DNA of 64,000 nucleotides from Armatimonadota bacterium (GTDB lineage Bacteria; Armatimonadota; HRBIN16): positions 3,264,001 to 3,328,000 of the forward strand of contig OY781964.1 in assembly GCA_963677485.1 (NCBI GenBank). The letters run 5' to 3'. The notes below the pieces were generated by a model that saw only the letters and a program-made list of their open reading frames with translations, was not told the origin of the DNA and made no database searches. The translations under genes and the position numbers were made by a program. This document shows positions 9,315 to 56,732 of the stretch, one piece after another (within the stretch, counting starts at the first letter, position 1; each line of letters opens with the position of its first letter).

Positions 9315-9317
9315 CGC

Positions 9318-13173: not shown

Positions 13174-13287
13174 GCAATCCGGTTGAGGTACCATGTGCCT
13201 CAACCGCTATATCATCGATAATTTGGATAAGCATATACTATTATATGTGCTATAATGTCTATATAATGCCCATTTCGGAGGTCATTC

Positions 13288-14172: not shown

Positions 14173-14173
14173 T

Positions 14174-39831: not shown

Positions 39832-39864
39832 GTGGTAATCTCCAGTTGGTAGTGATTGATGGTG

Positions 39865-40063: not shown

Positions 40064-40433
40064 ATATATAGCGTACTAGGGGCGGTTCGAGAACCGCCCT
40101 TCTTGCGTCGAGGGGTAGCCACGCCCCTGGCGGTTGGCATAGGGAATATCATCCACGGATGACGCAGATTACACAGATTAGGTCATGACCGGGGCGGTTT
40201 CTCAGAGCACTATCAAACGCCCTGCAGCCCGTCTCCGGCGCGGTCTGGCGGACAGCCCGTTGCCGATGCCCCTGGCGTCAGGATACCCGTTGACAACCAA
40301 CACTTAAAAGGGTGTAACTAGACAGAGCAGACAAGCATAGCCATATCTCACTTGCGACAAACTAACGACAGCAAAACATCGATCAAAGCTGATCTTTGCA
40401 CCACTTTCAGTAACTACCAGGAGATATATCATT

Positions 40434-41057: not shown

Positions 41058-41089
41058 GATCGTAGTCTCGAGGTTGCAATTACATAAAT

Positions 41090-41647
41090 ATGTACAAAAA
41101 AGGCTCTATCATACGCAGGTGGGTTGTCGCGTTAGTCGTGGTAATCGCACTGTCATTAGGTGCCTTCCTGTTTTTATTTGAAGGGTATTTACATGAGCAT
41201 TACGTCATTGAGCTTCCAGGGGGGTATCGATGCCGGAACAACAACTTCTCCGGCGTCACTCCTGCTTTGATGGGTGTGATTATTGAACTCTACCAAGATC
41301 AAGCCTCTGTTATAAATTACGACCAATTAAAACTTAAGGTAGGACCTAATGTGAACGGTTATTGTGTTTACTCCAACACAATAGTTGGGATCGTAACGAT
41401 GCGGAGAAACAAGGATATATCAGCATATGATGCAATACATAATTTTACTATTCAAATATCTGAAATGCGACCTGGCTATTTCATCATCGACCTTCATACG
41501 AAACGTATTTTCGGCGGCCTTAGCAAGCGGGACTGGCTGGCGAAGCTCAAAACATACGGGATCACCACGGAACCAGCGTTGCATAAACCACACTGGATGG
41601 ACGAGTATCGAGGGTGGAATAAACCGGTGGACGTTCCTGCCCGATAA
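41090..41647 (+). CDS. hypothetical exported/membrane-anchored protein, paralog 2 (possibly DUF3997-like)
   Basis: N-terminal TM; LPGGY; C-terminus KLKTYGITTEPALH near-identical to the upstream gene. Confidence 0.72.
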   Translation: MYKKGSIIRRWVVALVVVIALSLGAFLFLFEGYLHEHYVIELPGGYRCRNNNFSGVTPALMGVIIELYQDQASVINYDQLKLKVGPNVNGYCVYSNTIVGIVTMRRNKDISAYDAIHNFTIQISEMRPGYFIIDLHTKRIFGGLSKRDWLAKLKTYGITTEPALHKPHWMDEYRGWNKPVDVPAR

Positions 41648-41739
41648 GATGGACCAATTCCAACAGATGAAGGATTCTGCGCCCGCTTGCTGGAAACAAT
41701 CAACAGTAACCACAAAACTAGCAGGTGCAGTCCCACAGT

Positions 41740-44370
41740 ATGAGTGATCCATCGCCCCGAGACACGACAAGGCAACTTAACTCGCCTGACGCCCGTAAAA
41801 CCCTCTTTGCGCTGGGATCGCTGGCAGAGGGGGCTTTGTTGTGTGATCGGTTCGTGGTGGTGCGTACATTCCGCCCGCATGAAACCGCCAGGCCAGGCGT
41901 GTTTCTGTGTGACGACGCCCAGCTAGGCCGCGTGGTCGTGAAGATACACCCCCTCGATATCCCGCCCGATCAACACCTGTGGAGCATGTTGCAGCAGATC
42001 AGGCATCCCAGTGTGGTGCCCATTCTGCACACGCTGCATTGGCAGGGGCTGTGGGTCGAGGTGCAGCCGTACCTGTCAGGCGGCAGCCTGGTCGACCGCT
42101 ACACGCAGAGCCTCACCGGTCTGGTGCAGATGCCGCTGCCATACATCGAGAACGGGTTGGTGCCCCAGATCAGCAGTGCTCTGGCGGCCCTGCACGAGCG
42201 CGGGATTGTGCACCGCGATGTGAAGCCGGGCAACATATTGATTCAACCCGAAGAGGGCGGCGACCACTACCTTCTGGGCGACTATGACATCAGCTCGCAG
42301 TTGGCTATCGATGTCCACACCCGACTGACATCACGCGCGGCGGGCACCTGGATATACACCGCGCCTGAGGCCTTCCCGCGGTATCGCGATGACAACGGCG
42401 AGTTGGGTGCTAAGGTGTCGCGGGCGAGTGACTACTACAGTCTGGGGGTCAGTCTGCTCGAGCTGTGTGTGGGCACCACCCCGCTGCACACCAGCCAGTT
42501 GCCGGATATGTATGACTTCTACCTGACTGGGAACCGCCTGGACCCCCCGGCATCGATCCCTCAACGGGTGCGCGAGCTGATCTCGGGGCTGCTGATCCGT
42601 CAGCCGCATCTGCGCTGGGGTGAGCCCGAACTCAGCCGATGGCTGAGGCATGGCACCACCGCCGAGGACCTTACCCGTATCGAACAGGCGCAGCACCAGC
42701 CTGTCAGCGGCAAAGTGGTGGTGGAGTTTCGGTATTACGATCAGATTGTGGAGAGCCCTGAGCATCTGGGCCAATTGATGGCGGGCGAACTCGACAAAGC
42801 CGCGTTCTACCTCGAACAGCCCGAGGGGCTGTGGAGCTGGCTCGGGCAGATCGACGTCAACCGGGCGGTCACCGTGCGTAAGCGGTTTGAAGCGGCCCGG
42901 TCAGCCGGCGGGGCCGAAATGCTGCTGGTCTGCCTGTCGAACCCCTCCGCGAGGTGCCTGGTCAACGGGGATGTTCTCCAAAATGCGGCGCAGTGGCTGG
43001 AGAACCATAAACAGCAGGCGCGCGCGAGCTGGGTGACCGACATGGAGCTGAATCGCCTGCTCTACTGGCTGGAGTTCCACCGTGACGGCGACCCAGCACT
43101 GGCAGAGAGACTGAAGCCCATCAAGAAGACCCCCCACTCGGTGCGGTTGTTCGAGATGCAGTGGGCGCTCTTCCCCGAGCTGCCCATCACCATCCGGCCG
43201 GGCTACACCGCGCAAACACCCGCCGAGTTTGCCCTGATCGCCTACGGCAAGGAGCCGGACTGGGCCAGCGGACGTTGTGAGAGCTATCAGCGTGCGATGG
43301 TGGTGTGGCAGGACGGGCTGCTTGAGGCCTGGCTGCGCCAGCGTGGTCTGCTCCAGCTTTCGGAGCGCAGCGAACAGATACGTCAGCAAAGCTCGGATCA
43401 GCCGATCATCGCCTTCGAGGAGCTGCTGTTGCAGCTCAACCCGGAGCTGCCCAAACCAGTGATCAGGGTGGATCACGCCTCTACGGTGCAGATATCATTT
43501 GCCACCTCAACCCCTATTCTGGTGCCGTATCACACCAAAGGCATGGGCAACCCCATCATTCAGGTCAAGTGGCGGGCTCAGCCGGAGCTGGTGCCCGCAC
43601 CAAATCCGCTGGTGGGCCGTGAGGGGCATATCAGCGCAGTGTTTGGTGCCCAGATGGGGCGGGCAAGGGCCTCTGGGGAGATGGCCTTCAGCCTGAGCAG
43701 CCACAATGCCATCGTGAGCCAGGAGCTGCACACCGTGCCGTTCCGCGTGGTCAATCCCAACGGCGACCTCATCCGGCAGATGATCATCTCTATCCTGGTC
43801 GGGATTGCGATCTTTTGGTTTAGCCGCTGGGTGATGTCCGTCACCGGTCTTCATGCCCCTTTTACGTACGAGCAGCTTGAAGTGAACGGCACGTGGCGTC
43901 CATACCGGCGTGCTGCCACAAACACCATGCTATCGGCGCAACTGGGCATTGCGGTCTGGGCCTCTCTGATGTCCATCGGCTGGCTTTGCCATCAGAGCGC
44001 CCGGATGCGTGTTGAGCGGCTTGCTATCGGCGATCCGAGCATGAGGGACCTCATCAACCGCGAGGTGATGGGCAGCATCGTGGCCTTCATCGGGATATCG
44101 GGGTTTGTCGGGCCATGGATGGCTTATATCCTGGACATCCTGACCAGCTCCAGGCTGACATCATCCCATCCCGCGTTGATGTGGGCTGTGTGGGGCGGGG
44201 TGCTCGGTGGGGTCGCGGGGTTCTGGCTGATCAGTCCCGTTCAAGGGCGCACCTATTGGCGCGGATGGGTGCTTCTGGCTGTCATCATTGTGATGGTGGT
44301 GTTGGCGGCCGTCACGATGATAATGATGCCTGATGTAGCCGTTCCGGTAGCGGCCACTGGCCTCGATTGA
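41740..44370 (+). CDS. membrane-anchored Ser/Thr protein kinase 1 (atypical motifs)
   Basis: VVKIH, HRDVKPGN, GDYD in place of DFG, GTWIYTAPE, SDYYSLG; C-terminal multi-TM region. Confidence 0.9.
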   Translation: MSDPSPRDTTRQLNSPDARKTLFALGSLAEGALLCDRFVVVRTFRPHETARPGVFLCDDAQLGRVVVKIHPLDIPPDQHLWSMLQQIRHPSVVPILHTLHWQGLWVEVQPYLSGGSLVDRYTQSLTGLVQMPLPYIENGLVPQISSALAALHERGIVHRDVKPGNILIQPEEGGDHYLLGDYDISSQLAIDVHTRLTSRAAGTWIYTAPEAFPRYRDDNGELGAKVSRASDYYSLGVSLLELCVGTTPLHTSQLPDMYDFYLTGNRLDPPASIPQRVRELISGLLIRQPHLRWGEPELSRWLRHGTTAEDLTRIEQAQHQPVSGKVVVEFRYYDQIVESPEHLGQLMAGELDKAAFYLEQPEGLWSWLGQIDVNRAVTVRKRFEAARSAGGAEMLLVCLSNPSARCLVNGDVLQNAAQWLENHKQQARASWVTDMELNRLLYWLEFHRDGDPALAERLKPIKKTPHSVRLFEMQWALFPELPITIRPGYTAQTPAEFALIAYGKEPDWASGRCESYQRAMVVWQDGLLEAWLRQRGLLQLSERSEQIRQQSSDQPIIAFEELLLQLNPELPKPVIRVDHASTVQISFATSTPILVPYHTKGMGNPIIQVKWRAQPELVPAPNPLVGREGHISAVFGAQMGRARASGEMAFSLSSHNAIVSQELHTVPFRVVNPNGDLIRQMIISILVGIAIFWFSRWVMSVTGLHAPFTYEQLEVNGTWRPYRRAATNTMLSAQLGIAVWASLMSIGWLCHQSARMRVERLAIGDPSMRDLINREVMGSIVAFIGISGFVGPWMAYILDILTSSRLTSSHPALMWAVWGGVLGGVAGFWLISPVQGRTYWRGWVLLAVIIVMVVLAAVTMIMMPDVAVPVAATGLD

Positions 44371-44442
44371 TGGACTATCTTCGGGTGGTTTAGAAAATAC
44401 CAACCCTGTCTTGGGTAATTGTTAGTATTCAAGAACATCATA

Positions 44443-44958
44443 GCCTATGTCCGGGGCGGTCTTTCAGGAAGCAAGCGGTGGCGGAGGGAAAAAGACCGCG
44501 CCGGTCTGGCGGATAGCCTGATATCCCTCGTCACGAACAGGTCAAGACCGGCGCGGTTAGGAGAAAACCGCCCCGGACTTAGGCAATAGCGCCGGTCTTG
44601 CGGAAAACCAGCAGTGCCTATGTCCGGGGCGGTCTTGCAGGAAGCTAGCGGTGACGGAGGGTAAAAGACCGCGCCGGTCTGGCGGATAGCCTGATATCGC
44701 TTGTCACGAATAGATCAAGACCGGCGCGGTTAGGAGAAAACCGCCCCGGACATAGCAACCAAGACCGGCGCGGTTAGAGAAAACCGCACCGGACATAGCA
44801 AATGAAAACTAGCAATGCCTAAGTCCGGGGCGGTCTTACAGGAAGCTAGCGGTGACGGAGGGTAAAAGACCGCGCCGGTCTGGCGGATAGCCTGATAGCC
44901 CTTGTCACGACTAGATCAAGACCGGCGCGGTTAGTAGAAAACCGCCCCGGACATAGGC
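44443..44958. repeat. array of three nested-palindrome REPIN/MITE-like units plus half units
   Basis: Same family as 7958-8626: GCCTATGTCCGGGGCGGT ... ACCGCCCCGGACATAGGC, units near 44443, 44616 and 44817. Confidence 0.9.
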
Positions 44959-45090
44959 AATCAAGACTGGTCTAGAAACATTCTTGCGACGCGGTCATGC
45001 GTGAGGCGATATACTTGGGTAGCATCGGCCTCCATTGGTGTATAGTGTTGTATGAAAAGGGAAATATGTCTGACTGATGGAGTGGTTATA

Positions 45091-47775
45091 TTGGCTGATC
45101 GCCCGACGGAAAAGATAGGCAACGACAACCCGACACAGCTTGTGGGCGGTGCCGTCGCGGCAGGCGGTGACGCCACCCGTGCGGTGCGCTCTTCCGACCA
45201 ACCCCGGGCCCAGGCATCACCCCGCTTCGCGCTGGGAGCACTGGCTGAGGGCACGATGCTGCTCGGTAGCTACAAGGTGGTGCAGACCTTCCGAGCGCAC
45301 GAAACCGGCCGCCCGGGCGTCTACCTGTGTGACACCGCCACCGGTCGGGTTGTGGTGAAGCTCTACCCCCTCGACTACCCGCCTGTGGCTGATGTTTGGG
45401 CCCAGACCGGGCAGTTGGTCCATCCGCATGTCGTACCCACCATCCGGCAGGTCATGCAGAACGGCCTTTTCTGCGATGTGATGCCCTATTATGAGAGCGG
45501 CTCGCTGGTGGAGGCGTATCAACAAGAAGGCTCGAACCTGCTGCAAGTGCCGATGGAGATCATCACAGACAGATTCGCTCCGCAGATACTCGATGCCCTG
45601 GCGTATGTCCATTCAATGGGGCTTGTCCACCGAGACATCAAACCGAGCAACATCCTGGTGGACGGCGTAGATGATCAGCCGGAGTTTCTTTTGGGTGACT
45701 TTGACATCAGCTCACAGCTTAACACCCAGCTTGATCAGCGCATCACCATGCGCGCCGCGGGCACTTGGACCTACACCGCCCCAGAGGCGTTCCCCAGATA
45801 CCAGGACGAAGAGGGCGTGGTCGGAGCCAAGGTAACGCGGGCATCTGACTACTACAGCCTGGGTGTGACGATGCTGGAGATGACCTGCGGTACCACTCCG
45901 CTGCACACCTGCTCACTACCCGATGTGTTTGACTTCTACCTCAGCGGTCAGAGGATTTCTGTGCCGTCGGAGCTGCCCGAGCGGTTGCGCACGTTGATCC
46001 AGGGCCTGCTCATCCGTCATCCGCAGCAGCGCTGGGGTGAAGCCGAAGTTGATCGTTGGCTTCAAAGCAATAACACCGCCGATGACATGCAGCGCATACA
46101 GGATTCTCAGGTCAGACCACTGAGTGCTAAGACAGAACCGCCATTTCAGTATCGTGATGAGGTTATGCAGAACCCTGAACAACTCGGTCAACTCATCGCT
46201 GACGACCTGGATGCAGCCACCACATTGCTGCGTCGTGCCGAAGGGTTGTGGGTCTGGCTGGGCAGGATCGATGTGAACCGGGCGGTGGCGATACGGAAGC
46301 GCGTGGAGGCGGCATCCGGCGGTGGAGCCGAAGTGATACTGGCCTGCCTGCTGAACCCGCACGTGGTATGCCATGTCGGCTCCCATGAGCTCAACACGGC
46401 CCAGCAGTGGTTTGACATGCTGGACAGTGCCCGCAGCGCATCAGTAAGCAATGCTGAGCTCTACCGGTTCCTCTACTGGCTGTATTACCATGCTGACGGT
46501 GATCGTGACTTGGCGAAGCGGATCATGCCGATCTTGAAGACGCTGGATGGCATCCGGTTATACGAGATTCGCTGGGCAATGTATCCCGGCACCCCGTTGA
46601 CAGTGTGTCAGGGCTATGATGCCCGCACTCCAGAGCAGTTGGCTTCCATCGCATACGGGCAGGAGGCGGACTGGAGCAGCGGACGATGCGACCAGTATGA
46701 ACGGGCGATGTCGCTCTGGCTGGATGGCATCGTGGAGGCCTGGCTGAGGCAGTTGGGCCATCAGCAGCTGGCGGTCCTCAGCAAAGCCAAACGCGATGCG
46801 AGTGCCGGCCAACCGGTGGCCGGTTTTGAAGAGGTTTTGCGTCTGATGAAACCCGGGCTTCGCAGGCCTGAAGTCAGTTTCCAGCTCCCAAGCTGCGTGA
46901 AGGTAGACTTCAAAATCCCAACCCGCGTGCGGGTTCCATATACCACCACGGGCCCAGGAAAACCTGTGATGCATGTCCAGTGGCAGCCACACAGTGGTTT
47001 AGATGCCGCCGCAGAACAATATGTGGAACGTGTTGGTCATGTGGAGGCGAAGCTCATTGCACAGGGTGGACAGCTTGAAGAGAAGGGTCGCGTTGGTTTT
47101 AGTGTCGAAAGCCCGAATGCAAAGCTCATCCCTGGCATGCACTGGCTGCCGTATGAGGTGGTCAACCCGAACGGGAGTATAGCCATTCAGATGGTCGCAT
47201 CGACTATTCTGGGCGGGTTGATATTTGGCGTGAGCCGGTCCATCATGGCGGCGATGGGTTACCACGGATTCTTTAGTATCGCTGGTGAACACGCCACCAG
47301 GACTCAGGATGGGCTCATGGGGCAGGCAGGGATGTTTATATTTGTGTCGCTGCTGGGAGCAGGGGTGACGGCTCATTGCGTGGTTCGTGACCGTGTGGAG
47401 AAGCTGCGGATTCAGATGGCTGACTTTGAAATCGTGGATTCCTCTGCGTATGCATATGATCCCGAATCGAGGGTGGAGGCCATGGCCGGTCAGTTGATGG
47501 TGCAACACCCATGGCTATCAGCCGGGATTCTGATCATCGTGGGCGGTCCGGTCTCAATTAGTGTGCTGGACTATGTCACGGGCTCGCTGCTCATCCCGTC
47601 AACCCCGCAAATCATGTGGACCTTTTGGGGACTAATATATGGTGCGGTGGCCGGTTTTTGGCTGGTGAGCCCTCTGCGGGGGCGTACCTACCTGCGCCTC
47701 CCTGTGCTGGCTGGCGTGGTTCTGCTGATGGCGGTGCTCGGTCTGGTGATCTACGGTTTGTGCCCACCACCGTAG
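45091..47775 (+). CDS. membrane-anchored Ser/Thr protein kinase 2
   Basis: HRDIKPSN, GDFD, GTWTYTAPE; TTG start inferred from alignment with kinase 3 (MADRPT) and a GGAG RBS; C-terminal TMs. Confidence 0.9.
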   Translation: MADRPTEKIGNDNPTQLVGGAVAAGGDATRAVRSSDQPRAQASPRFALGALAEGTMLLGSYKVVQTFRAHETGRPGVYLCDTATGRVVVKLYPLDYPPVADVWAQTGQLVHPHVVPTIRQVMQNGLFCDVMPYYESGSLVEAYQQEGSNLLQVPMEIITDRFAPQILDALAYVHSMGLVHRDIKPSNILVDGVDDQPEFLLGDFDISSQLNTQLDQRITMRAAGTWTYTAPEAFPRYQDEEGVVGAKVTRASDYYSLGVTMLEMTCGTTPLHTCSLPDVFDFYLSGQRISVPSELPERLRTLIQGLLIRHPQQRWGEAEVDRWLQSNNTADDMQRIQDSQVRPLSAKTEPPFQYRDEVMQNPEQLGQLIADDLDAATTLLRRAEGLWVWLGRIDVNRAVAIRKRVEAASGGGAEVILACLLNPHVVCHVGSHELNTAQQWFDMLDSARSASVSNAELYRFLYWLYYHADGDRDLAKRIMPILKTLDGIRLYEIRWAMYPGTPLTVCQGYDARTPEQLASIAYGQEADWSSGRCDQYERAMSLWLDGIVEAWLRQLGHQQLAVLSKAKRDASAGQPVAGFEEVLRLMKPGLRRPEVSFQLPSCVKVDFKIPTRVRVPYTTTGPGKPVMHVQWQPHSGLDAAAEQYVERVGHVEAKLIAQGGQLEEKGRVGFSVESPNAKLIPGMHWLPYEVVNPNGSIAIQMVASTILGGLIFGVSRSIMAAMGYHGFFSIAGEHATRTQDGLMGQAGMFIFVSLLGAGVTAHCVVRDRVEKLRIQMADFEIVDSSAYAYDPESRVEAMAGQLMVQHPWLSAGILIIVGGPVSISVLDYVTGSLLIPSTPQIMWTFWGLIYGAVAGFWLVSPLRGRTYLRLPVLAGVVLLMAVLGLVIYGLCPPP

Positions 47776-47783
47776 GGGCAGGT

Positions 47784-47848
47784 CCCCTGGGAACGCCCCC
47801 TGGGAACGCCCCCTGGGAACGCCCCCTGGGAACGCCCCCTGGGAACGC
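47784..47848. repeat. perfect 13-bp tandem repeat x5 (CCCCTGGGAACGC)
   Basis: Counted directly: TGGGAACG at 47788, 47801, 47814, 47827 and 47840. Confidence 0.92.
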
Positions 47849-48028
47849 CAATCTCCTGATTGGCACATTGTCCTACTCGTCCTACTCATCCTACATGTCC
47901 GGAACGGGAAATAAAACCACGAATGAACACGAATGAACGCGAATGCCCGGATTGTCTGAACCACGGATGACACGGATGGGGAGGGAAATGCCGTTTCGTG
48001 GGCGGGGCGTTGCGGAAGGTGGTTTTTT

Positions 48029-48093
48029 GGGCGGGGCGACCCCGCCCCTACGATTTTATGCGGCCACCGTAGGGGCGGGGTCTTCCCGCCCTG
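48029..48093. repeat. pair of GTAG-class REP palindromes
   Basis: GGGCGGGGCGACCCCGCCCCTACG and CGTAGGGGCGGGGTCTTCCCGCCC. Confidence 0.75.
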
Positions 48094-48289
48094 GGCCTGC
48101 ACGCCCAGGGTCTCCCCGCTCGGGGTTCCGGCCCACACACGCCCCGCCCAAACCCATCGCCCACCTTGCGATCTGGCCCATCCGATAACGATGACCATCG
48201 GGCAGATGCGTAAGGCTCCAATTGTCAGTGCGTTGTGGTATAAATAACATGGTCTCTGAAGTTGGAGGCCGATGGAGTTGCTCCCAGCA

Positions 48290-50614
48290 ATGGCAGATCG
48301 TCCGACACAGAAAATAGGTAACGATAACCCGACACGGCTTGTGGGAGACGTTGTTGCGGCACCCGGCGATTCCACCCGTGCGGTGCGCTCAACCGATAAA
48401 CCCCGAGCCCAAGCCTCAACCCGTTTCGCACTGGGAGCCTTGGCTGAAGGCACCATGCTCTTCGGCGATTATAAAGTGGTGCAGACCTTCCGCGCACATG
48501 AAACAGGCCGCCCCGGCGTGTATCTGTGTGACACCGCCTCGGAGCGGGTCGTGGTGAAGGTCTACCCGTTGGATTTCCCGCCGTCTGCGGATGTCTGGGC
48601 CCAGATTGGACAGTTAAACCATCCGCATGTGGTGCGAATCGTTCGCCAGGTGCTGCAGGACGGCCTCTATTGCGATGTGCTGCAGTATTGTGAGTGCGGC
48701 TCGCTGGTTGAGGTGTATCTAAACAACGAAACAAAAATGCTGAAGGTTCCGATGGGCTCCATGCTAGATCGGTTCGCTCCGCAAATGCTGGATGCACTCA
48801 AGTATGTTCACTCCATGGGGCTTGTGCATCGCGACATCAAACCAAGCAATATACTAATAGAAGAGAACGCGGAAAATCCCGAATTTCTTCTTGGTGACTT
48901 CGATATCAGCTCCAAGCTGAGTTTGCAGCTCGATCAGCGCATCACCATGCGGGCCGCGGGCACTTGGACCTACACCGCGCCAGAGGCGTTCCCAAGATAC
49001 CAGGACGAAGAGGGCGTGGTGGGGGCGAAGGTGACGCGTGCCTCCGACTACTACAGCCTGGGCGTGACGATGCTGGAAATGGCCTGCGGAACCACTCCGC
49101 TGCACACATGCAAACTACCGGATATGTTCGACTTCTATCTGAGCGGACAGAAGATCGACGTGCCGTTGAGCATACCCGAGAGGCTTCGACTGCTTATCCA
49201 GGGGCTTTTGATACGCAACTCCAGCCAGCGCTGGGGTGAGGCGCAGGTCGGCCGGTGGCTGACGGGCACGAACACCGATGTCGATGTGCAGCTCATCACC
49301 GATGACCGCGAACACAGCCCCTTCAGCAAGGCGGCGGGCGATGCCTACTCGTTTGGCGCGCAGCACGCAAGGAGTTTCAGCCAGTTGGCGGAGATGTTTG
49401 CCGCGGACCCTGAGATGGCTGCGGACCACCTGCGCATGAGCGATGCGCTTTACCAGTGGGTGGGGCAGCGTGATACCAGCCTGGCCATATTGTTGCGCAA
49501 GGATGTTCAGAAATACATCAACCATCCTGACCTGGCAATGATCGGCGCCTGTCGGCTGGACCCCAACGCGCCGATGATCTTCTTCAACGGATTGCCTGTG
49601 CGGACGGCCGAACAGTGGCTTTCCGAGGCGGAGCGGATATACCCACAGCGTAAAGAACCGGACTGCTGGCTGGATGAAAAAGAGGCCGAGCGTTTGCTGC
49701 TATGGCTGCAGAGGCGTGGAGCTGCCGACCGTGATATCGCCAGACGGCTGGAGGGTTTGGAAGTCCGTAACCCGGAGTGCCGGTTGGCTGAGGTCAGCTT
49801 TGTAATTGACCCGCGCCGCGGCATCAGCCTGGCGGAAGGTGTGACGGTGTCGCACCCTGTCGATTTTTCGACCATGGCCTACGGTGATGAGCAGAGCTGG
49901 ACTAACGGGATACCGGCGTGCTATGAGCAGGCATACCGCGTGTGGAGCACAGGGATTCTGGAGGCATGGTTCCGGCAGCGCGGACTGACGGCTCTGGCCG
50001 TGCGCTGCGCTGATCTGAAGGAGACAATGCGTGACACTCCTTACGGGGCCTTCGAGACCATACTTCGGGTGATCAATCCGAAGTTGCCCACGGTGAAGGT
50101 CAGTTTTGAGCGCATTCCGCCGGTGACACTGGTGTATGGTAAGCCGACGCGAGTGGCGTTAAACTACCACACTATCGGCCCCGGATGTCCGCTGATGCGG
50201 TTTGTCGGCATGGGTGATAAAGATGAGGCGTATCTGGAAACCCCAGTGATAGGCTCGCGTGAAGGCCAGGTTTGGGTGAAGCTGACCGGGATGGTAACAC
50301 TTAAGGGTGTACCGCGTCTGATGGATATTAAAAGCACGGGTCCTTTTTCGAAACTGGTGGGTGGAGAGCCGACGCTTACCTATGAAGTGGTTACCAACTC
50401 GCGTATGTTTGGTGTCTATGTGGGCTGGAGTGCTGCGTATGGACTGCTAGGTCTTTGGCTGCCCAGGCAGTTGATGCAATACACTGGTATTAACGAGTTA
50501 GATTTTGAACTTCGCCGCATTGCTGCGGCAATAGGTATGGTTGTTCTGGCAGTGATGATATTTCTCGGCAGAATGATGTATCTATCAGCCCTAAAATCGG
50601 CGGAGGAAGAGTAG
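48290..50614 (+). CDS. Ser/Thr protein kinase 3 with two C-terminal TM
   Basis: HRDIKPSN, GDFD, GTWTYTAPE; N-terminal ~320 aa highly similar to kinase 2. Confidence 0.9.
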   Translation: MADRPTQKIGNDNPTRLVGDVVAAPGDSTRAVRSTDKPRAQASTRFALGALAEGTMLFGDYKVVQTFRAHETGRPGVYLCDTASERVVVKVYPLDFPPSADVWAQIGQLNHPHVVRIVRQVLQDGLYCDVLQYCECGSLVEVYLNNETKMLKVPMGSMLDRFAPQMLDALKYVHSMGLVHRDIKPSNILIEENAENPEFLLGDFDISSKLSLQLDQRITMRAAGTWTYTAPEAFPRYQDEEGVVGAKVTRASDYYSLGVTMLEMACGTTPLHTCKLPDMFDFYLSGQKIDVPLSIPERLRLLIQGLLIRNSSQRWGEAQVGRWLTGTNTDVDVQLITDDREHSPFSKAAGDAYSFGAQHARSFSQLAEMFAADPEMAADHLRMSDALYQWVGQRDTSLAILLRKDVQKYINHPDLAMIGACRLDPNAPMIFFNGLPVRTAEQWLSEAERIYPQRKEPDCWLDEKEAERLLLWLQRRGAADRDIARRLEGLEVRNPECRLAEVSFVIDPRRGISLAEGVTVSHPVDFSTMAYGDEQSWTNGIPACYEQAYRVWSTGILEAWFRQRGLTALAVRCADLKETMRDTPYGAFETILRVINPKLPTVKVSFERIPPVTLVYGKPTRVALNYHTIGPGCPLMRFVGMGDKDEAYLETPVIGSREGQVWVKLTGMVTLKGVPRLMDIKSTGPFSKLVGGEPTLTYEVVTNSRMFGVYVGWSAAYGLLGLWLPRQLMQYTGINELDFELRRIAAAIGMVVLAVMIFLGRMMYLSALKSAEEE

Positions 50615-50919
50615 TGTACAGATACCGACGCCCGACGCCTGGCGAAATGTTGGTGCAAGCGGCGATCATAGGTTTGTTTTTACTATTCATGGCAGGGCCG
50701 TATGCGATAGCTCTACTGGACTTCGTGTTCAGCACGTATTTGGTTCCTGAGATGCCTCAGATTATGTGGGGCTTTTGGGGTGTTGTGATCGGAGCAACCA
50801 TAGGTCTGCAGATCGTGGCACCACGGATGGGGCTCGAGAGAGCGGCTCAGATATCGCGATGGTCAGTACCGGCAGTGATGCTGGTTCTTGCCCTAATCGG
50901 ACAGTTAATCAAAAGGTAG
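50614..50919 (+). CDS. small membrane protein homologous to the terminal TM module of kinases 1 and 2
   Basis: GPYAIALLD...PQIMWGFWG vs kinase 2 GPVSISVLD...PQIMWTFWG; TAGTG overlap with a GGAGG RBS. Confidence 0.75.
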   Translation: MYRYRRPTPGEMLVQAAIIGLFLLFMAGPYAIALLDFVFSTYLVPEMPQIMWGFWGVVIGATIGLQIVAPRMGLERAAQISRWSVPAVMLVLALIGQLIKR

Positions 50920-50929
50920 GAGAAATCAA

Positions 50930-52249
50930 ATGAGTGGAGCAGTCGATATGGTACTGCTGGTAGGTGCCTTGCTTGAAGGGGTCAGCCTGGCAGTCAATAC
51001 TATGCAAGACGCGTACAAAACGGCCCAGCGGCAGATGGAAACCGCGCAAGAGACAGTGAAGTTTCAGCGCGATATGGAGCTGCAGCAGGCGTGTGAGGAT
51101 CAGATCAAAAGTGGGCAGGTTGTGGCCGCCTCAGCGCAGATGCTGACGGACGAACCTGGCACGCTGTTCCTTTTCCAGGCACTGGGTGAGCTGAAACAGC
51201 AGCTTGGGCAGAGCCAGGGGGCTCGCACTGAGTCTCTTCGTGCAGCGATCGATGAGCGAATTCGCCAGGTGGCCAATCATCCCGACCAGATGGTGGCGCA
51301 CACCAATGCGATATTTGAGTTCCACCAGCAGATCGCGGAGCTCAGCCAGCAGCAGCAATCCGAAACGGTCAGCGCATTGGCACACACCGCCATCCCGTTT
51401 GCTCAGCAGGTGCAATATCTGCGTTCGATGCTGGACACCGCGCTGATCAGGCAGTTTCGGCCTAAAGAGCTGGAAGAGATGAAGCTGCAGATCGCCCGTC
51501 TGGAGATCGTGGCGGAGCAAAGCCCCGAGATCGCAGCTCAGGGTTATGAGACGCTGACGGCTCAGTTGCGGCGGTTAATGTTGGATGCCGCTGAGCATGA
51601 GCAGCATCGGCGTGCCGGTATCGCCCGAATCCAGCAACTGCTGGCAGTGGCCCGACCGGCTTTAGCAGCGGTGATGACCGCCCAGGAACTGGTGCCTCAT
51701 CTCTCCACCCGCAGCACGGCGTTGAAGCAAGCGATCAAGAAATTCGTCACCAACTGGAACGGCGGCTCGCTTGAGGAGTTAGAGGCACTGTCGCAAAACA
51801 GCGAGCTGTTATACCATCAGGCTCAGCAGTATATCCAGAAGCAGGCGGCTGCCGAACTGGTGTATAACAATGTCACCGCCTCCTTCCAGGAGCTGGGCTA
51901 TGAGGTCATGACGCTCAACCGGTATCAAGGCCGATGGCGCGGGCGGGTGGCCTTGACGGACACCGCCGGCATCGAGTTTATCTCAGACCCCGAGGGCGGG
52001 GTGTTGTCAGACACGGTCACCACAGATATCAACAACGTGGCTTTCAATCCAGAGCTGGAGCAGAAGGTCTGTACGACCGTTGATGAGGTACTGGAAAAGG
52101 CCAGGGCGAAACTGGCAGGCACCGGAGTTGAGCTGCGCGAGCGCAGCCGTGTGCATGGACGCGTACCGAGGCTGGTGCGCAGCCTGCAGAGAGATACCGA
52201 GGAACAAACCACCACTGCCGAGGCCCCAAAGACGCTGGAACAGCAGTAG
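50930..52249 (+). CDS. hypothetical coiled-coil protein
   Basis: Hydrophobic N-terminus, Q/E/A/L-rich helical body, C-terminal SFQELGYEV alpha/beta region; AGGAG RBS. Confidence 0.8.
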   Translation: MSGAVDMVLLVGALLEGVSLAVNTMQDAYKTAQRQMETAQETVKFQRDMELQQACEDQIKSGQVVAASAQMLTDEPGTLFLFQALGELKQQLGQSQGARTESLRAAIDERIRQVANHPDQMVAHTNAIFEFHQQIAELSQQQQSETVSALAHTAIPFAQQVQYLRSMLDTALIRQFRPKELEEMKLQIARLEIVAEQSPEIAAQGYETLTAQLRRLMLDAAEHEQHRRAGIARIQQLLAVARPALAAVMTAQELVPHLSTRSTALKQAIKKFVTNWNGGSLEELEALSQNSELLYHQAQQYIQKQAAAELVYNNVTASFQELGYEVMTLNRYQGRWRGRVALTDTAGIEFISDPEGGVLSDTVTTDINNVAFNPELEQKVCTTVDEVLEKARAKLAGTGVELRERSRVHGRVPRLVRSLQRDTEEQTTTAEAPKTLEQQ

Positions 52250-52384
52250 AAACTAATACCGCATCTACCTGGTCTCACGCGAAGACGCGAAGGTAACAGC
52301 CAGTTCAGGCGTCCGCTTTAGCTGGTTGATGGAACCCGTCGCCGATGCCTAGGTAGAACCTAACAGCCAAATAAGGAGCTTCGC

Positions 52385-54331
52385 ATGGAGTTAGCCTCGC
52401 AGCCCAGATGGATACAGGAGCTGCTGCGCGTCAGCAGCTACAAGACGCTTATCATCCTGCATGGTGCGATCCGTGACACGGTACTGTATCCCGTCCAGAG
52501 CCTGGAGGGCACTCAGCAGTATACATTTGGGCCGCTTCGCAGTGCGCTGTTTGAGCTGTTGGGCCGTAATCCGCTGTTTGGAGAGTATCCGCTGGTCGGC
52601 GCGTACAGCGGGTTAGATGGTTTGCTGTTTGCACCCGGCAGCGGTACCGGGCAGACACCGGAGCAGCTTTTCGCCGATGCGGTCAAACAGGCAGAGCAGG
52701 CTCAGAAGACGAACAACAGCCCGATCAAACCGCAGCAGACACAAGCCGCGTCCGATGCCGCCATCCAGCAGCTCCGCATGTGCACCCGCAACACCATCAC
52801 CCCCTGTGCATTTATCGTGGAGAACGCCACCCAGATGGTGGGAACGCCCAACCATCTGCCGATGGATGAGCGAAACCCCTTCCTCAGGATGCTGATCGGC
52901 AGCACCGAAAGCCGTCCGGTGGGTGTTGACCGCGACGGAAAGCGGCGGATCATGCAGAATTTGCTGATCATCTGCGCCAGCAGGCCGACGGACCTGCCTC
53001 CCTGGGTCTACCTCGATAACCCCTTCGCGGCCACCGTGGAAGTGGAACGCCCGAACTCGTTGGAACGCAGATACTTCTTTAGCAGCTACCTGAGCCCTGT
53101 GCCGACGGAGCAGCACCTCGACCAGTTGGTGGACCTGACGGACGAGATGAGCTTCCGCGACCTGTTCGGCATTCAAAAGATCGCAACCGGTATGAATGAG
53201 GAATCCGCCAACCCCAAGGCGTTGGTGGACCGCTTCAAATATGGCGAACGGCAGAGCGAATGGGACAGCCTGGAGCCTGCCAGACTGCTGGATGCGGAAA
53301 AGACGCTCAGCCAGCGTGTGCTGGGGCAGCCTGCGGCTGTCGCGGCGGTCGCCGATGTGCTGCGGCGTGCCCGGCTGGGCCTCTCAGGCGTGCAGCACAG
53401 CAGCCAGACCAAACCCAGAGGAGTCTTGTTCTTCGCGGGACCAACCGGCGTGGGTAAAACCGAGCTGGCGAAAGCGGTGGCCGAGTTGGTATTCAGCTCT
53501 GAAGAGGCTTGCATCCGGTTTGATATGAGCGAATACAGTGCCAGCCATAGTGATCAGCGCCTGCTGGGAGCTCCCCCCGGTTACGTCGGTTATGAAGAGG
53601 GTGGACAGCTCACGAACCAGATCAGGGCGAACCCCTTCAGTGTGATTCTGTTTGACGAAATTGAGAAGGCGCACCCGAATATCCTGGATAAGTTTTTGCA
53701 GATTCTGGAAGATGGGCGCATGACCGACGGCAGAGGCCAGACGGTCTATTTCAGCGAGAGCATCATCATCTTCACCAGTAATGCCGGCATCTATAAGGTC
53801 AACTCGCAGACAGGCCGGCCTGAGCAGGACCCTGTGACGGGTCTACCGTTACTAAATATCGACCCCGACACCAATCCAAAATACGAGCAGGTTCGTGACC
53901 AGGTGATTAAGGGTGTGAGTGACTATTTCAAGCACTACCTGGGACGCCCTGAGCTGCTGAACCGCATCGGCCAAAATGTAGTTGTGTTCGACTTCATCCG
54001 CCCAGATGCGATGCGAAGCATTTTGGAGAACAAGGTGCTGAAGGGTGTCAGCAAGCAGCTCAATCAGCGTTGGGGCATTAAGCTGGAGCTAAGCCCCGAG
54101 GCTCTGGAGCAGCTTTCGGTATGGGTGCTGGCCGATCCTGGCTCCGGTGGGCGCGGCATCGGTAACCTGGTAGAGGTGGCTCTGGTGAACCCCCTTAGCC
54201 GGTTGCTGTTCGCCAAACTGGCCGAAGACCCGCAAGGCTTTCAGAATCGCACACTACGTGTGATCAGCTTCACGGCACCGGAATCCAACGCAGAACACCG
54301 CTACGAGCTGTCTGTCGGGTGGACTGAATGA
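52385..54331 (+). CDS. AAA+ ATPase with a degenerate N-terminal AAA domain and a ClpA/B D2-like C-terminal domain
   Basis: IILHGAIRD (no Walker A Lys); RVLGQ, FAGPTGVGKTELAK, RFDMSEY, GAPPGYVGY, ILFDEIEKAH, IFTSN, RPELLNRI; no Clp N-domain. Confidence 0.9.
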   Translation: MELASQPRWIQELLRVSSYKTLIILHGAIRDTVLYPVQSLEGTQQYTFGPLRSALFELLGRNPLFGEYPLVGAYSGLDGLLFAPGSGTGQTPEQLFADAVKQAEQAQKTNNSPIKPQQTQAASDAAIQQLRMCTRNTITPCAFIVENATQMVGTPNHLPMDERNPFLRMLIGSTESRPVGVDRDGKRRIMQNLLIICASRPTDLPPWVYLDNPFAATVEVERPNSLERRYFFSSYLSPVPTEQHLDQLVDLTDEMSFRDLFGIQKIATGMNEESANPKALVDRFKYGERQSEWDSLEPARLLDAEKTLSQRVLGQPAAVAAVADVLRRARLGLSGVQHSSQTKPRGVLFFAGPTGVGKTELAKAVAELVFSSEEACIRFDMSEYSASHSDQRLLGAPPGYVGYEEGGQLTNQIRANPFSVILFDEIEKAHPNILDKFLQILEDGRMTDGRGQTVYFSESIIIFTSNAGIYKVNSQTGRPEQDPVTGLPLLNIDPDTNPKYEQVRDQVIKGVSDYFKHYLGRPELLNRIGQNVVVFDFIRPDAMRSILENKVLKGVSKQLNQRWGIKLELSPEALEQLSVWVLADPGSGGRGIGNLVEVALVNPLSRLLFAKLAEDPQGFQNRTLRVISFTAPESNAEHRYELSVGWTE

Positions 54332-54969
54332 GGCGGACCCATATAGATATCGACGGCGCGGCAGCCCACGTTCAGGGGCTTGGGCCAGGTGAACGGCTGG
54401 TGATCTGGCTGCGCGGCTGCTCACGGCGGTGCGAGGGTTGTATCGCGCCGGAGCTGTGGGATTCGGGTGAACCGACCCCGATTGCGGAAGTGGCTGCCTA
54501 TTTGTTGTCGGAGCTTCAAGGATGCGGCAAGCTGACCGTGTCTGGTGGCGAGCCGATGGATCAGCCGGAAGCTTTGCTGGAGCTCATCAGGCAGTTGCGC
54601 ACAGCCATGCCGGAGCTGGAGGTGCTGGTGTATACCGGATATGTTTATGAGGAGCTGCAGACGAAGTCAACGGCCCACACACAGCTTTTGGGTCAGATCG
54701 ATATGTTAGTGGATGGTGCATTTGAGGTCGACACGCCCAACACGCTGCAGTGGCGCGGTTCCGACAACCAGCGGGTTCTGCTTCTCTCCGAGCGGGCGCA
54801 GATATACCGCGACCAAACCGAGCTGCCCTGGCCGGAGCAAAGGCCCATCCAAGTGCAGATGTGCAGTGCCACGGAGTATCGGGTGATCGGCATTCCGAAG
54901 CGCGGCGGGATCGAACAGTATAGAGAGTTGATGCGTCAACGAGGAATAGAAGTGGGGCCATCCATATGA
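54328..54969 (+). CDS. NrdG-like radical SAM (activase-family) 4Fe-4S protein
   Basis: LGPGER.VIWLRGCSRRCEGC (CxxxCxxC), TVSGGEP, YTGY, DMLVDG, WRGSDNQR. Confidence 0.9.
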   Translation: MRRTHIDIDGAAAHVQGLGPGERLVIWLRGCSRRCEGCIAPELWDSGEPTPIAEVAAYLLSELQGCGKLTVSGGEPMDQPEALLELIRQLRTAMPELEVLVYTGYVYEELQTKSTAHTQLLGQIDMLVDGAFEVDTPNTLQWRGSDNQRVLLLSERAQIYRDQTELPWPEQRPIQVQMCSATEYRVIGIPKRGGIEQYRELMRQRGIEVGPSI

Positions 54970-55478
54970 CTGCAGTGAGAATATGTCCAGATTGTGGGCA
55001 ACAGAACGCGGCGCATCTGGTTTTTTGTACGAAGTGCCAGATGGATATCAGCACGGTGCCGCCGGAGGTTCCCGAGGTGACAGAGCAGACCATCACGACA
55101 CCTGCACCGCCGCAGAAGACATCTGATGCCACGTCAGTGGTCAAACCATGCGGTCAGAAGAGCGATGGAGCGGTGTGCAGCCTGGAGCTGGTTTCTGACT
55201 CCAATGTGGTGTTCAACGTGCAGGATGGCCAGGTGGTGGGCCGCGGTGATAAGGCGGATGTGCGTATTACCGGGGTACCGGATATCGATGCGATTTCACG
55301 GCTTCATGCGAAGTTCTTTTGTAAGAACGGTCAGTGGTACGTGCAGCATATGGGAAGCACGAATTTTATCAAAGTGGACGGCCAAACCTATACCGATCAC
55401 GACTCAGAAGTGGCCGTGTATGAGGGTAGTATTGTGGTGTTGAGCCTGACCCCTTTCACCTTCCGCGTGGTAGATTAA
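54966..55478 (+). CDS. zinc-ribbon + FHA domain protein
   Basis: CPDCG...FCTKC; VVGR, ISRLHA and GSTN FHA motifs. Confidence 0.88.
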   Translation: MTAVRICPDCGQQNAAHLVFCTKCQMDISTVPPEVPEVTEQTITTPAPPQKTSDATSVVKPCGQKSDGAVCSLELVSDSNVVFNVQDGQVVGRGDKADVRITGVPDIDAISRLHAKFFCKNGQWYVQHMGSTNFIKVDGQTYTDHDSEVAVYEGSIVVLSLTPFTFRVVD

Positions 55479-55623
55479 CGTTGTTCTGCATCTCCAGTTA
55501 TCATTTGTAGCTTAGCGCGACATAATCCAGTATATTACTAGCATCAGTAGCCAACGCATATGCTATAATATGCCATATCGGTGCCTTACCACCACCATCC
55601 TCATCACGTATCGAGGTGACACC

Positions 55624-56643
55624 ATGGAGATTTCCGAGTTCAAACTGCCCGGGGCCTCTATCAACTGCGCGAAGGGATTTGCCATGCTGTTTGTGGTGAT
55701 GCAGCATGTGGGGAACCGCGCCGATTTCCCTGCATTTTACGAAGCTTTCATCAAGTTTACTGACTTCTTCAACATGCCTGCTTTTGCATTTATATCCGGT
55801 TATCTTGCCTATTACAGCTACCAGAAACATGCGGTCTCTTCTGGGTGGGATGGGGTCTGGCATCTGATCGGCCGCAGGGCAAAGCAGTTGCTGGTGCCGT
55901 ATATCTGTGCAGAGGCCATCTATATGGTGATCCAAGCTGTGCGGAATGCCATCACCCACCAGCCGCTGATGCATCCTGAGACATTGACGAACCTGCTGTT
56001 ATATCCCATCCAGACGCCGAACCCGCCCTTATGGTACTTATATGTATTGTTCCTGGTGAGTGGTATTTTTTTGATCATGCGGAAGATCGTGGGTGAAGGC
56101 GGGCTGTTGCTGGCATTATGCCTGGCGGCGTTCTTTCTACCGGGTGATAATCTGTTGTATACCCGCAAGATCGTGTTCCTGCTGCCGTTTGTAGCCTTGG
56201 GCTGGTACACCTGGAAGCTGAAGCGGGTGATGCCATTTGACAAGAGGCTGGCATGGCTTTGGATACCCGCTATATTGCTCACGATCACACTGCTTCACTA
56301 CCCGGTAGTTCAGGAGAGTGAGCTGTGGCTGAGACCGCTGCGGTACGTGATCGCGATTCTGGGTGTTCTGGCGATGTGTGGCACCGGGCAGGCGATTCAA
56401 GAGAGCAGCCGATTGCGCAAAACCGTGATCTGGATGGGTGAGGTGAGCCTGCCTGTCTATCTGCTGCATGATGGGTTTGTGGACCTGGTAGGTCGGTTTG
56501 CCCAGCGTCACGTGCATGGATGGCAGTTCCTGCCGGCTGCTTTGGTGATATGCGCACTGGCCATTGGGTTGATCGGTGCCGCTCACATCTGGCTACAACC
56601 CCGCAGCCGGTGGTATCGCACCCTTCTGCTGGGCTCGCGATAG
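55624..56643 (+). CDS. acyltransferase-3 family membrane protein
   Basis: AKGFAMLFVVMQH, FNMPAFAFISGY, LLVPY, LWYL, SLPVYLLH. Confidence 0.88.
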   Translation: MEISEFKLPGASINCAKGFAMLFVVMQHVGNRADFPAFYEAFIKFTDFFNMPAFAFISGYLAYYSYQKHAVSSGWDGVWHLIGRRAKQLLVPYICAEAIYMVIQAVRNAITHQPLMHPETLTNLLLYPIQTPNPPLWYLYVLFLVSGIFLIMRKIVGEGGLLLALCLAAFFLPGDNLLYTRKIVFLLPFVALGWYTWKLKRVMPFDKRLAWLWIPAILLTITLLHYPVVQESELWLRPLRYVIAILGVLAMCGTGQAIQESSRLRKTVIWMGEVSLPVYLLHDGFVDLVGRFAQRHVHGWQFLPAALVICALAIGLIGAAHIWLQPRSRWYRTLLLGSR

Positions 56644-56732
56644 GGTCAGCCAGCGTAGAAATCTTTAGATACGGGTAATCACCCGTTGTGTGCTTACCGA
56701 TTGTCTCTGCCATCGCCAGGAGGTAGGATATC

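Follow-up and report, generated by a model that had tools for sequence, protein, structure and literature searches.

A kinase, Hsp100-like AAA+ and radical SAM cassette of an Armatimonadota bacterium as a candidate conflict module

The window analysed here, a stretch of 64,000 nucleotides from an Armatimonadota bacterium (GTDB lineage HRBIN16; assembly GCA_963677485.1, contig OY781964.1, positions 3,264,001 to 3,328,000), contains at positions 41725-55478 a cassette of genes for membrane Ser/Thr kinases, a coiled-coil protein, an Hsp100-like AAA+ ATPase, an NrdG-like radical S-adenosylmethionine (SAM) enzyme and an FHA-domain protein. This cassette is a real, conserved and horizontally spread module. 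The locus may belong to a widespread mobile module that serves in conflict with, or defence against, phages or other mobile elements. This reading is tentative, with a probability of roughly 0.45: no defence neighbours are found in the window's own clade, and every step of the proposed mechanism is read from sequence.

The putative core of the module comprises a kinase-fold protein, a Zn-ribbon, an AAA+ ATPase with an apparently dead first tier (D1), an NrdG-type radical SAM enzyme and a membrane-anchored coiled-coil protein with an invariant Cys. The variable part of the kinase-fold protein, as assigned from its domains, is a four-helix membrane domain in the window, where three paralogues are present, and a DUF4011 SF1-helicase/restriction-endonuclease elsewhere. 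Most likely, the kinase-fold protein would act as both sensor and output, and the AAA+/radical SAM pair would act on a protein.

Conservation and spread of the cassette

A scan of a genome collection with the AAA+ protein kept 80 loci, of which ten (L013-L022) match the whole protein and 70 only its second tier (D2); a metagenome scan with an alignment of the D1 domain gave 80 further loci. For a census, 90 AAA-anchored loci were translated in six frames and searched with five hidden Markov models (HMMs) for D1, the radical SAM enzyme, FHA/Zn-ribbon, the kinase and the C-terminal domain of the coiled-coil protein. Partner genes are present at 31 of the 90 loci: the radical SAM enzyme at 27 of these, the coiled-coil C-terminal domain at 26, FHA/Zn-ribbon at 24 and the kinase at 20, counts that are not independent, as the HMMs were built partly from the counted loci. 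Most partner gaps are contig ends: L104, L153 and L165, which show no radical SAM gene, are cut there, and L018 truly lacks the gene. At this last locus (positions 8810-14209, Comamonadaceae), the coiled-coil and AAA+ genes stand without radical SAM or kinase beside genes for an RtcB ligase and an RF-1-domain (PrfH-like) protein.

In the closest clade (L093-L107), the AAA+ proteins are 51-57% identical to that of the window. As far as the often truncated contigs reach, the gene order follows that of the window: coiled-coil protein, AAA+, radical SAM, FHA protein, a PP2C phosphatase in some of these relatives, and a membrane kinase with complete sensor and membrane portions, which may be followed by a small transmembrane ORF (open reading frame); L095 is an exception, with the order AAA+, FHA, kinase, small transmembrane ORF, radical SAM. 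The same gene set is found at three independent loci that had no part in HMM building. On a conjugative plasmid of Rhizobium leguminosarum (L189), genes with overlapping starts encode an AAA ATPase, a 4Fe-4S single cluster protein, a 2086-aa "AAA domain-containing protein" and a hypothetical protein. A 44-kb plasmid of Aristaeella lactis (L190) carries, in sequence, DUF4011, a Ser/Thr kinase, a hypothetical protein of the coiled-coil family, FHA, 4Fe-4S, AAA, a phosphatase, DUF6273 and a kinase, and a third cassette copy lies on a 50-kb IMG/VR contig (L191). The sequence-only reading of the window had postulated one conserved module, to be given up if the homologs were not syntenic across genomes; with the 31 loci and L189-L191 the synteny holds.

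Two variants of the arrangement were observed in passing. At L190 (1-16032), DUF4011 is a separate gene beside the cassette, in contrast to its fusion to the kinase-fold protein in Proteobacteria, and a second kinase and DUF6273 are added. The human-gut form (L115, L128, L155, L171 and L191) has the order radical SAM, kinase, coiled-coil protein, FHA, AAA+, and at L115 and L128 it lies downstream of genes for an FtsK/SpoIIE-family ATPase, a DUF5685 protein and three unknown products. The copy on the IMG/VR contig suggests that this form is carried on an integrative or viral element.

The spread of the module is uneven. Strong D1-domain matches occur in all three genomes of the window's genus and in none of 13 genomes of the sister genus; elsewhere in the phylum the matches are weak (at E<=1e-3, 14 of 61 genomes in total). 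Of 201 species genomes in the genus of L017, ten contain the D1 domain at E<=1e-20. Carriers span Pseudomonadota, Actinomycetota and Bacillota, and nine plasmid records carry the cassette AAA+ family. The D1 profile matches 1521 clusters (50% identity) at E<=1e-3, 907 at 1e-10 and 340 at 1e-30; a search of a phage collection (50,697 records) with the N-domain of the AAA+ protein gave no match.

Predicted architecture and activities of the components

A hallmark of the AAA+ protein is its two-tier architecture. An AlphaFold2 (AF2) model built on 23 family members (predicted local distance difference test, pLDDT, 83) aligns in Foldseek over ~690 columns with the two-tier chains of ClpC1, ClpB and ClpA, with E-values down to 9.5e-31, and the N-terminal 300 residues thus correspond to the D1 tier. 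Each of the 23 family members has a single Walker A motif, located in D2; at the expected Walker A position of D1, an invariant GxxxD (G27...D31) is found instead. D2 is intact, with Walker A and B, a GYVG-type pore loop and the sensor-2 Arg. The earlier designation as a ClpB-D2-like AAA+ was right about the relation to D2, but the D2-only reading has to be replaced by a two-tier Hsp100-like protein with a dead D1. With ClpB, ClpC and ClpA the protein shares the two-tier fold, the D2 Walker motifs, the pore-loop Tyr, the sensor-2 Arg and the D2-small domain; it differs from them in the D1 without Walker A, in the lack of a ClpN or M-domain match and in the IG[FL] ClpP-docking loop, which a motif scan found not to be conserved in the family.

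The nearest NCBIfam models are ClpB, ClpV and ClpA, in each case for the D2 part only. The ClpB model (TIGR03346) scores 268 bits against a cut-off of 1232 and matches only at model positions 553-833, so that neither a ClpN domain nor an M-domain is matched. Compared with a class 1 disaggregase of the ClpB/Hsp100 type, the cassette protein has the two tiers, but neither an ATP-binding D1, an M-domain nor a family-level score. The defence ATPases PDC-M37B (3e-31) and DolB of Dodola (9.2e-20) match in PADLOC, a likeness limited to ~120 residues of the D2 core. The invariant G79 was considered as a radical site and rejected: it sits in a beta-hairpin at the D1 pore-loop position and is read as part of a pore loop.

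The radical SAM enzyme retains the motifs of its family: CxxxCxxC (C31, C35, C38), GGEP (G73-G74-E75-P76) and RGSxNQ (R143-Q148) are invariant in all 17 sequences, and the enzymes of the main clade carry a clade-specific C-terminal extension of ~55 aa. The best model is NCBIfam NrdG (TIGR02491), with 105.4 bits against a cut-off of 126.1. The pyruvate formate-lyase (PFL) activase model TIGR02494 matches with an E-value of 5.6e-10 (38.9 bits against a cut-off of 174; 3.3e-4 in a whole-genome search); weak matches are QueE (1.8e-4, 21 bits) and, in PADLOC, the prokaryotic viperin pVip (5.7e-3). Among the sequences of solved structures, only PFL activase is matched, at E 0.0088. The enzyme thus shares with NrdG and other activases of glycyl-radical enzymes the Fer4_12 fold, CxxxCxxC, GGEP, small size and best family match. 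It differs from NrdG in its score below the cut-off, its clade-specific extension and the lack of NrdD in the genome; it differs from the activases at large in that, in the surveyed loci, its gene is linked to the AAA+ gene and not to a glycyl-radical enzyme. Neither the family-level score nor, among the scanned ORFs of the window, the adjacent glycyl-radical enzyme of a PFL-type activase (TIGR02494) is found.

As stated in the sequence-only reading, no glycyl-radical enzyme is encoded in the window, at least among the ORFs scanned with Pfam (the cassette and 17 flanking ORFs). NrdD (PF13597) has no match in the genome of the window (one contig, 97.4% complete). The genome does contain, outside the window, nine PFL-like Gly_radical proteins of 710-792 aa with RVxG[YFW] motifs. 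Only one activase exceeds the TIGR02494 cut-off; it adjoins the PFL-like locus L004. At the other seven PFL-like loci that were inspected, no CxxxCxxC ORF of at least 150 aa lies within ~1.5 kb; L006 has two short minus-strand CxxxCxxC ORFs (101 and 84 aa). Among five other carrier genomes, Gly_radical is found in none and NrdD in two. Three of the five have neither, so that the substrate of the radical SAM enzyme must lie elsewhere and a conventional activase role is not possible in all carriers. A protein substrate inside the module, or recruited by it, is favoured, given the carriers without a known substrate class and the constant AAA+, coiled-coil and kinase-fold companions. Complex prediction for the AAA+ and the coiled-coil C-terminal domain with the radical SAM enzyme as partner scored 0.00, which is informative neither way.

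The coiled-coil protein is a core member of the cassette. It begins with "MSG" and a hydrophobic helix, continues as a long coiled coil and closes with an alpha/beta domain at the C-terminus. The "MS(G)" start is conserved in the family, the hydrophobic helix is present in most close relatives, and family alignments place the C-terminal domain in every cassette subtype. In this domain, one Cys is invariant in 22 of 22 sequences and a G-Y pair is nearly invariant (each residue at least 90%). Its AF2 model (pLDDT 83) shows a helix, a four-strand meander, a long helix and a strand. Foldseek found nothing for this model at E<=1e-3, and the whole protein matches only unnamed hypothetical clusters in the ESM Atlas (best score 0.90). 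A wide search with VIA-align returned the METTL16 VCR (Z 8.3), Chk1 KA1 (Z 8.2; root-mean-square deviation 2.9, 78 residues), AMPK (Z 7.9) and MARK1 (Z 7.4), values in a borderline range, as best Z-scores of 7-8 are typical for models without a true match. The KA1/AMPK likeness is a hint that the protein might be a kinase-regulatory or membrane-binding subunit. Two candidate radical sites were set aside: "RVHGR" in the window's protein is not conserved in relatives, and "LGY", which opens the C-terminal domain, is missing in two of the 22 sequences and is not claimed.

Kinases 1 to 3 are paralogous to one another, with 40-50% identity along most of the sequence (kinase 2 is 45% identical to kinase 1, kinase 3 50% identical to kinase 2). 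Pfam Pkinase matches range from 2.5e-24 to 8.1e-31, and the motifs VVVK, HRD[VI]KP[GS]N, GD[YF]D and APE are all present, as expected of active-looking Hanks-type Ser/Thr kinases. Kinase 1 is of a fused form: a conserved domain follows the kinase domain, and four membrane helices (at 682-867) lie at the C-terminus; a hydropathy scan indicates four such helices for kinase 2 as well. Kinase 3 stops after the second membrane helix. The 101-aa ORF that follows it has two membrane helices and is similar to kinase 2 residues 813-877 (40% identity, 1e-12) and to kinase 1 residues 776-841; it is predicted to represent the detached last two membrane helices of kinase 3. A separate small transmembrane ORF after the kinase also occurs in the relatives L094, L095, L103 and L105. 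Kinase 3 and the small ORF are thus a common split arrangement, and the idea of a frameshifted or broken gene was rejected. An ESM Atlas search with the kinase mid-domain gave no usable match.

Kinases are the fastest-evolving part of the cassette among congeners, in line with their earlier description as variable: between the window and congener G002, they are 32-58% identical, compared with 81% for the AAA+, 75% for the coiled-coil protein, 72% for the radical SAM enzyme and 60% for the FHA protein. The most divergent of them is kinase 2 (79% identity to congener G001, 47% to G002), and most of the change falls in the membrane part and the N-terminal tail. These tails carry T-x-x-[V/I/L] motifs, the usual ligand pattern of FHA domains, upstream of the kinase domain in ten of ten kinases of the window clade (one to four each); kinase 1 has one TxxL motif, kinase 2 has TEKI, TQLV and TRAV.

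The FHA protein is a predicted phospho-threonine reader: its FHA domain scores 37.6 bits against a Pfam cut-off of 20.7, and the GR, S and H (SxxH) are conserved at a level of at least 85% across 13 sequences. The family has a conserved CxxC...CxxC (Zn-ribbon), and the window's protein weakly matches FhaB/FipA (4.8e-5, NCBIfam). The Gly after the Zn-ribbon was dismissed as a radical site, since it is not conserved in the window's protein. Wherever the FHA protein is missing (L017, L019, L022 and L020), the Zn-ribbon is fused to the kinase; either fused or carried by the FHA protein, it is thus always present. In the window clade, the FHA-phosphothreonine contact may therefore replace a covalent link between Zn-ribbon and kinase.

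Phosphorylation gating, proposed earlier for the system, does not extend to all versions. In the proteobacterial L017, L019 and L022, FHA and PP2C are absent; the kinase-fold protein starts with Zn-ribbons, and its VAIK Lys, catalytic Asn and DFG Asp are no longer present. At L020, which has no FHA domain, the kinase is active, with two Zn-ribbons fused to it and one membrane helix at the C-terminus; in the Firmicutes forms, the kinase also looks active.

The gene calls and domain assignments that underlie this description (Table 1) agree with the sequence-only reading: the ORF list and the sequence confirm eight co-oriented genes, arranged head to tail, and Pfam confirms the kinase, AAA, radical SAM, FHA and Zn-ribbon domains. 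The ATGA overlaps between the AAA+ and radical SAM genes (54328-54331) and between the radical SAM and FHA genes (54966-54969) were read directly and couple these genes translationally. The 439-aa and 101-aa proteins have no Pfam match.

Table 1. Genes of the cassette (window coordinates) and PFL-like proteins encoded elsewhere in the same genome.
Feature	Position	Strand	Details
Kinase 1	41725-44370	+	881 aa; Pfam Pkinase 2.5e-24
Kinase 2	45052-47775	+	907 aa; Pfam Pkinase
Kinase 3, split form	48272-50614	+	780 aa; Pfam Pkinase
Small two-helix membrane protein	50614-50919	+	101 aa; alternative ATG start 50647
Coiled-coil core protein	50930-52249	+	439 aa; no Pfam or PADLOC match
Two-tier Hsp100-like AAA+	52385-54331	+	648 aa; Pfam AAA_2 1.6e-49 and ClpB_D2-small
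NrdG-like radical SAM enzyme	54328-54969	+	213 aa; Fer4_12 4.1e-31 and Radical_SAM
Zn-ribbon-linker-FHA adaptor	54966-55478	+	170 aa; FHA 3.1e-9 and weak Zn-ribbon
PFL-like glycyl-radical enzymes	loci L001-L008 and G000:C1:3368176-3368475		Gly_radical matches

Several features accompany these genes. The gap between kinases 1 and 2 (44430-44956) holds three tandem copies of a ~153-nucleotide (nt) repeat, 90-95% identical and spaced by 173 and 201 nt. The repeat recurs in the window at 8097-8598 and 1446-1818 and has 107 matches in the genome (73-100% identity), many in tandem arrays with a period of ~170-200 nt; it is a dispersed intergenic repeat family, and Rfam has no match in the interval 40000-57000. 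Immediately 3' of the kinase 2 stop codon (47776-47849) lie about five tandem copies of a 13-nt unit (family D5). Upstream of the cassette (38539-41647) lie an IS110-family transposase gene on the - strand and two genes for small single-helix membrane paralogues (207 and 185 aa; 44-48% identical), which have no Pfam match; the G+C content falls to 0.49 in this region. The paralogues (40434-41647) were rejected as part of the cassette, since no copy of them was found ahead of kinase 1 in congener G001.

Relation to known systems

The closest functional analogy to the cassette is, as we take it, the threonine-phosphorylation pathway of type VI secretion, PpkA/Fha1/PppA/ClpV. Both encode a membrane Ser/Thr kinase, an FHA reader, a PP2C phosphatase (in relatives of the window's cassette) and a ClpB-family AAA+ together. 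The cassette differs in its dead D1, in the added radical SAM enzyme and dedicated coiled-coil protein and in the dead kinase of other clades. A ClpV-level score is lacking: ClpV1 (TIGR03345) matches the AAA+ at 5.5e-63, with 213.5 bits against a cut-off of 885. No type VI structural families occur among the scanned ORFs of the window, the part of the genome to which this search was confined.

The closest sequence relatives of the individual parts appear to be NrdG, the D2 of ClpB/ClpC and, in a sister clade, MkoA of Mokosh, Hhe and PDC-S37. The proteobacterial form of the cassette shares with the latter three the combination of kinase fold, DUF4011, SF1 helicase and MTES_1575 endonuclease; the window's kinases, which match MkoA in its kinase part, have a membrane domain where that form has its helicase-nuclease, and DUF4011 is absent from the genome. 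The PADLOC models of MkoA, Hhe and PDC-S37, on which this comparison is based, lack the AAA+, the radical SAM enzyme and the coiled-coil protein of the cassette. In PADLOC-DB v2.0.0, the kinases are matched over the kinase domain only, the AAA+ over the D2 core only and the radical SAM enzyme only by pVip; the coiled-coil protein, the FHA protein and the small membrane ORF have no match.

The cassette probably belongs among the multi-gene NTPase/kinase conflict systems. With the NTPase-centred conflict systems described by Kaur et al. (2020, PMC7159879), it shares an AAA+ NTPase, often-dead kinases, occasional FHA domains, variable effectors and a patchy spread. Those systems, in the portions of the article covered here, centre on MoxR/vWA, STAND and related NTPases; a radical SAM enzyme is mentioned there only as part of FtsH ternary systems, and an Hsp100-like AAA+ with an NrdG-like enzyme does not occur in these portions. 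Two other reports that combine some of the elements describe different systems: a 2026 ParA preprint (HSP90 and radical SAM, permuted FHA domains) and, as far as the portion considered extends, Ophion (radical SAM, PHP, phosphoribosyltransferase; bioRxiv 10.1101/2025.09.30.679545). Neither PADLOC nor the full-text literature yielded a description of the cassette, in agreement with the earlier statement that none was known; this holds for main texts, and the supplements of PMC10250203 and the PADLOC definitions of PDC-M37 and PDC-S37 could bear on the matter. An Hsp100-like unfoldase paired with an NrdG-like enzyme seems to be without precedent.

A possible conflict module and its rivals

The module could operate in the following manner: A signal at the membrane would be sensed by the membrane part of the kinases, which would phosphorylate the T-x-x-[V/I/L] motifs in their own N-terminal tails. 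The FHA domain may then dock on the phosphorylated tails, bringing the Zn-ribbon to the kinase. The AAA+ would engage and unfold a protein of the module, possibly the coiled-coil protein or a kinase, and the radical SAM enzyme would abstract a hydrogen atom from the unfolded substrate, which would be switched on or destroyed. The output would be expected at the membrane, as the window's clade carries no nuclease, and the PP2C phosphatase of the relatives may provide the reset. All binding and catalytic steps of this scheme are deduced from the observed gene content, synteny, motif integrity, distribution and context.

A role in conflict or phage defence, as suggested in the sequence-only reading, finds its support in the sister clades. 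In Proteobacteria, DUF4011, an SF1 helicase and the MTES_1575 endonuclease form one polypeptide with the kinase-fold protein, and the 2102-aa representative at L017 matches the PADLOC models of PDC-S37 (4.8e-148), Hhe (8.9e-65) and MkoA (2.3e-51). A gene for JetA (1.7e-193) lies directly downstream of the cassette at L022, an MkoA/MkoC-like helicase gene upstream of it at L019, and other copies reside on plasmids. Genes of Pseudomonas aeruginosa referred to as "DUF4011 plus radical SAM", at the edge of the main defence hotspot (core defence hotspot 1; Johnson et al.), fit the proteobacterial form and are its probable counterpart. The patchy, mobile spread of the module and the rapid divergence of the kinases among congeners also count in favour of a conflict role.

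Several observations weigh against this role, beginning with the partial circularity of the census counts noted above. The window's own neighbourhood is no defence island: among the 17 flanking ORFs scanned with Pfam, no recognised defence gene is found, and the flanks encode PAS histidine kinases, a SpoIIE-type phosphatase, a sugar epimerase, an IS110 transposase, an acyltransferase and a GH2 glycosidase. Four neighbours at the close-clade loci L093 and L094 have no PADLOC match. The cassette is kept in all three congeners, and the probable P. aeruginosa counterpart is reported in every isolate (PMC10250203), both unusual for accessory defence genes. The window's version has no recognisable effector domain, DUF4011 being absent from the genome, and no conserved glycyl-radical motif of the RVxG[YFW] type is found in the coiled-coil protein or after the Zn-ribbon. 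Finally, a large clade from gut and rumen Clostridia (L013-L015, most of L111-L172, L016) possesses the dead-D1 AAA+ but none of the radical SAM, kinase, FHA and coiled-coil genes; 47 of these loci form a single cluster at 90% identity, a level at which seven of 30 clusters lack any partner. A quick tree, used only for this purpose, nests the solo clade among the system-type sequences. At L013 and L014, the AAA+ gene is followed by one for a 242-248-aa protein without Pfam or PADLOC match. The solo AAA+ gene at L016 adjoins a DarT1-associated NADAR antitoxin gene.

Some of these points would be accommodated by a housekeeping module for envelope or membrane signalling and quality control without any role in conflict, in which the kinases would report the state of the envelope, the FHA protein would relay it, and the AAA+ and coiled-coil proteins would extract or remodel membrane proteins, analogous to the PknB-FhaA/FhaB-PstP operons and to the threonine-phosphorylation control of ClpV in type VI secretion. 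The signalling and envelope genes of the flanks, with an acyltransferase_3 gene adjacent in both congeners, the fixation of the cassette in the three congeners, the ubiquity of the probable counterpart in P. aeruginosa (PMC10250203), the predicted membrane anchors of the coiled-coil protein and kinases and the weak FhaB/FipA match of the FHA protein are all consistent with such a function. It is nevertheless judged unlikely in view of the very patchy spread, as in the sister genus and in the genus of L017, the carriage on conjugative plasmids and an IMG/VR contig, the repeated fusion or linkage to a helicase-nuclease matching defence-candidate models and the fast divergence of the kinases.

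Two further explanations concern the substrate of the radical SAM enzyme. In a conflict module of the same kind, the enzyme might modify a small molecule, such as a nucleotide or signal, in the manner of viperin or QueE, with AAA+ and kinase in a purely regulatory role. Fer4_12 also covers QueE, the weak QueE and viperin matches point in this direction, the missing glycyl-radical motif in the module proteins would be explained, and for Ophion, at least in the portion of the report considered, a radical SAM defence via nucleic-acid chemistry has been proposed (bioRxiv 10.1101/2025.09.30.679545). The explanation is highly doubtful, however: NrdG is the best match by far (105 bits compared with 21 for QueE), and the enzyme is tightly coupled to a protein unfoldase. 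The family also keeps the RGSxNQ block, which is presumably typical of NrdG, and at 213 aa the enzyme is of small size; in small activases, the active site is open and fits protein substrates. Extremely improbable is a role as activase of the orphan PFL-like enzymes of the genome, with the AAA+ as their chaperone and a regulatory kinase/FHA link. The nine Gly_radical matches and the single activase above the TIGR02494 cut-off, with seven inspected loci that have no nearby candidate of sufficient length, would leave room for it, but three of the five other carriers lack both Gly_radical and NrdD and none has Gly_radical, the PFL-activase match is only 3.3e-4, and the gene neighbours conserved across phyla include no glycyl-radical enzyme.

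Within the preferred reading of a conflict module, a radical-based protein switch in immunity can be envisaged, although it is quite unlikely: the NrdG-type activase, released from its tie to ribonucleotide reductase, would place a backbone radical on, cleave or cross-link a module protein, either the coiled-coil protein with its invariant Cys or the kinase-fold sensor, which would be presented by the dead-D1 Hsp100. If true, this would be the first glycyl-radical-activase-like enzyme to act as a signalling or executioner step outside metabolism, and recruitment would fall to the kinase, FHA and Zn-ribbon parts as an interchangeable device. If the broader conflict reading is right, the occurrence of an unfoldase with an activase-type enzyme in genomes without any glycyl-radical enzyme would mean that conflict or signalling draws on radical chemistry on a protein, and a design principle would emerge in which an FHA-phosphothreonine contact in one clade stands in for a Zn-ribbon-kinase fusion in another. 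Compact plasmid-borne versions of four and seven genes exist that can be transferred to laboratory strains, which makes these ideas testable. The cassette would then represent an unrecognised widespread module, its D1-like domain being found in 340 clusters (50% identity, E<=1e-30), and the "DUF4011 plus radical SAM" genes at the edge of the main defence hotspot of P. aeruginosa would acquire a function.

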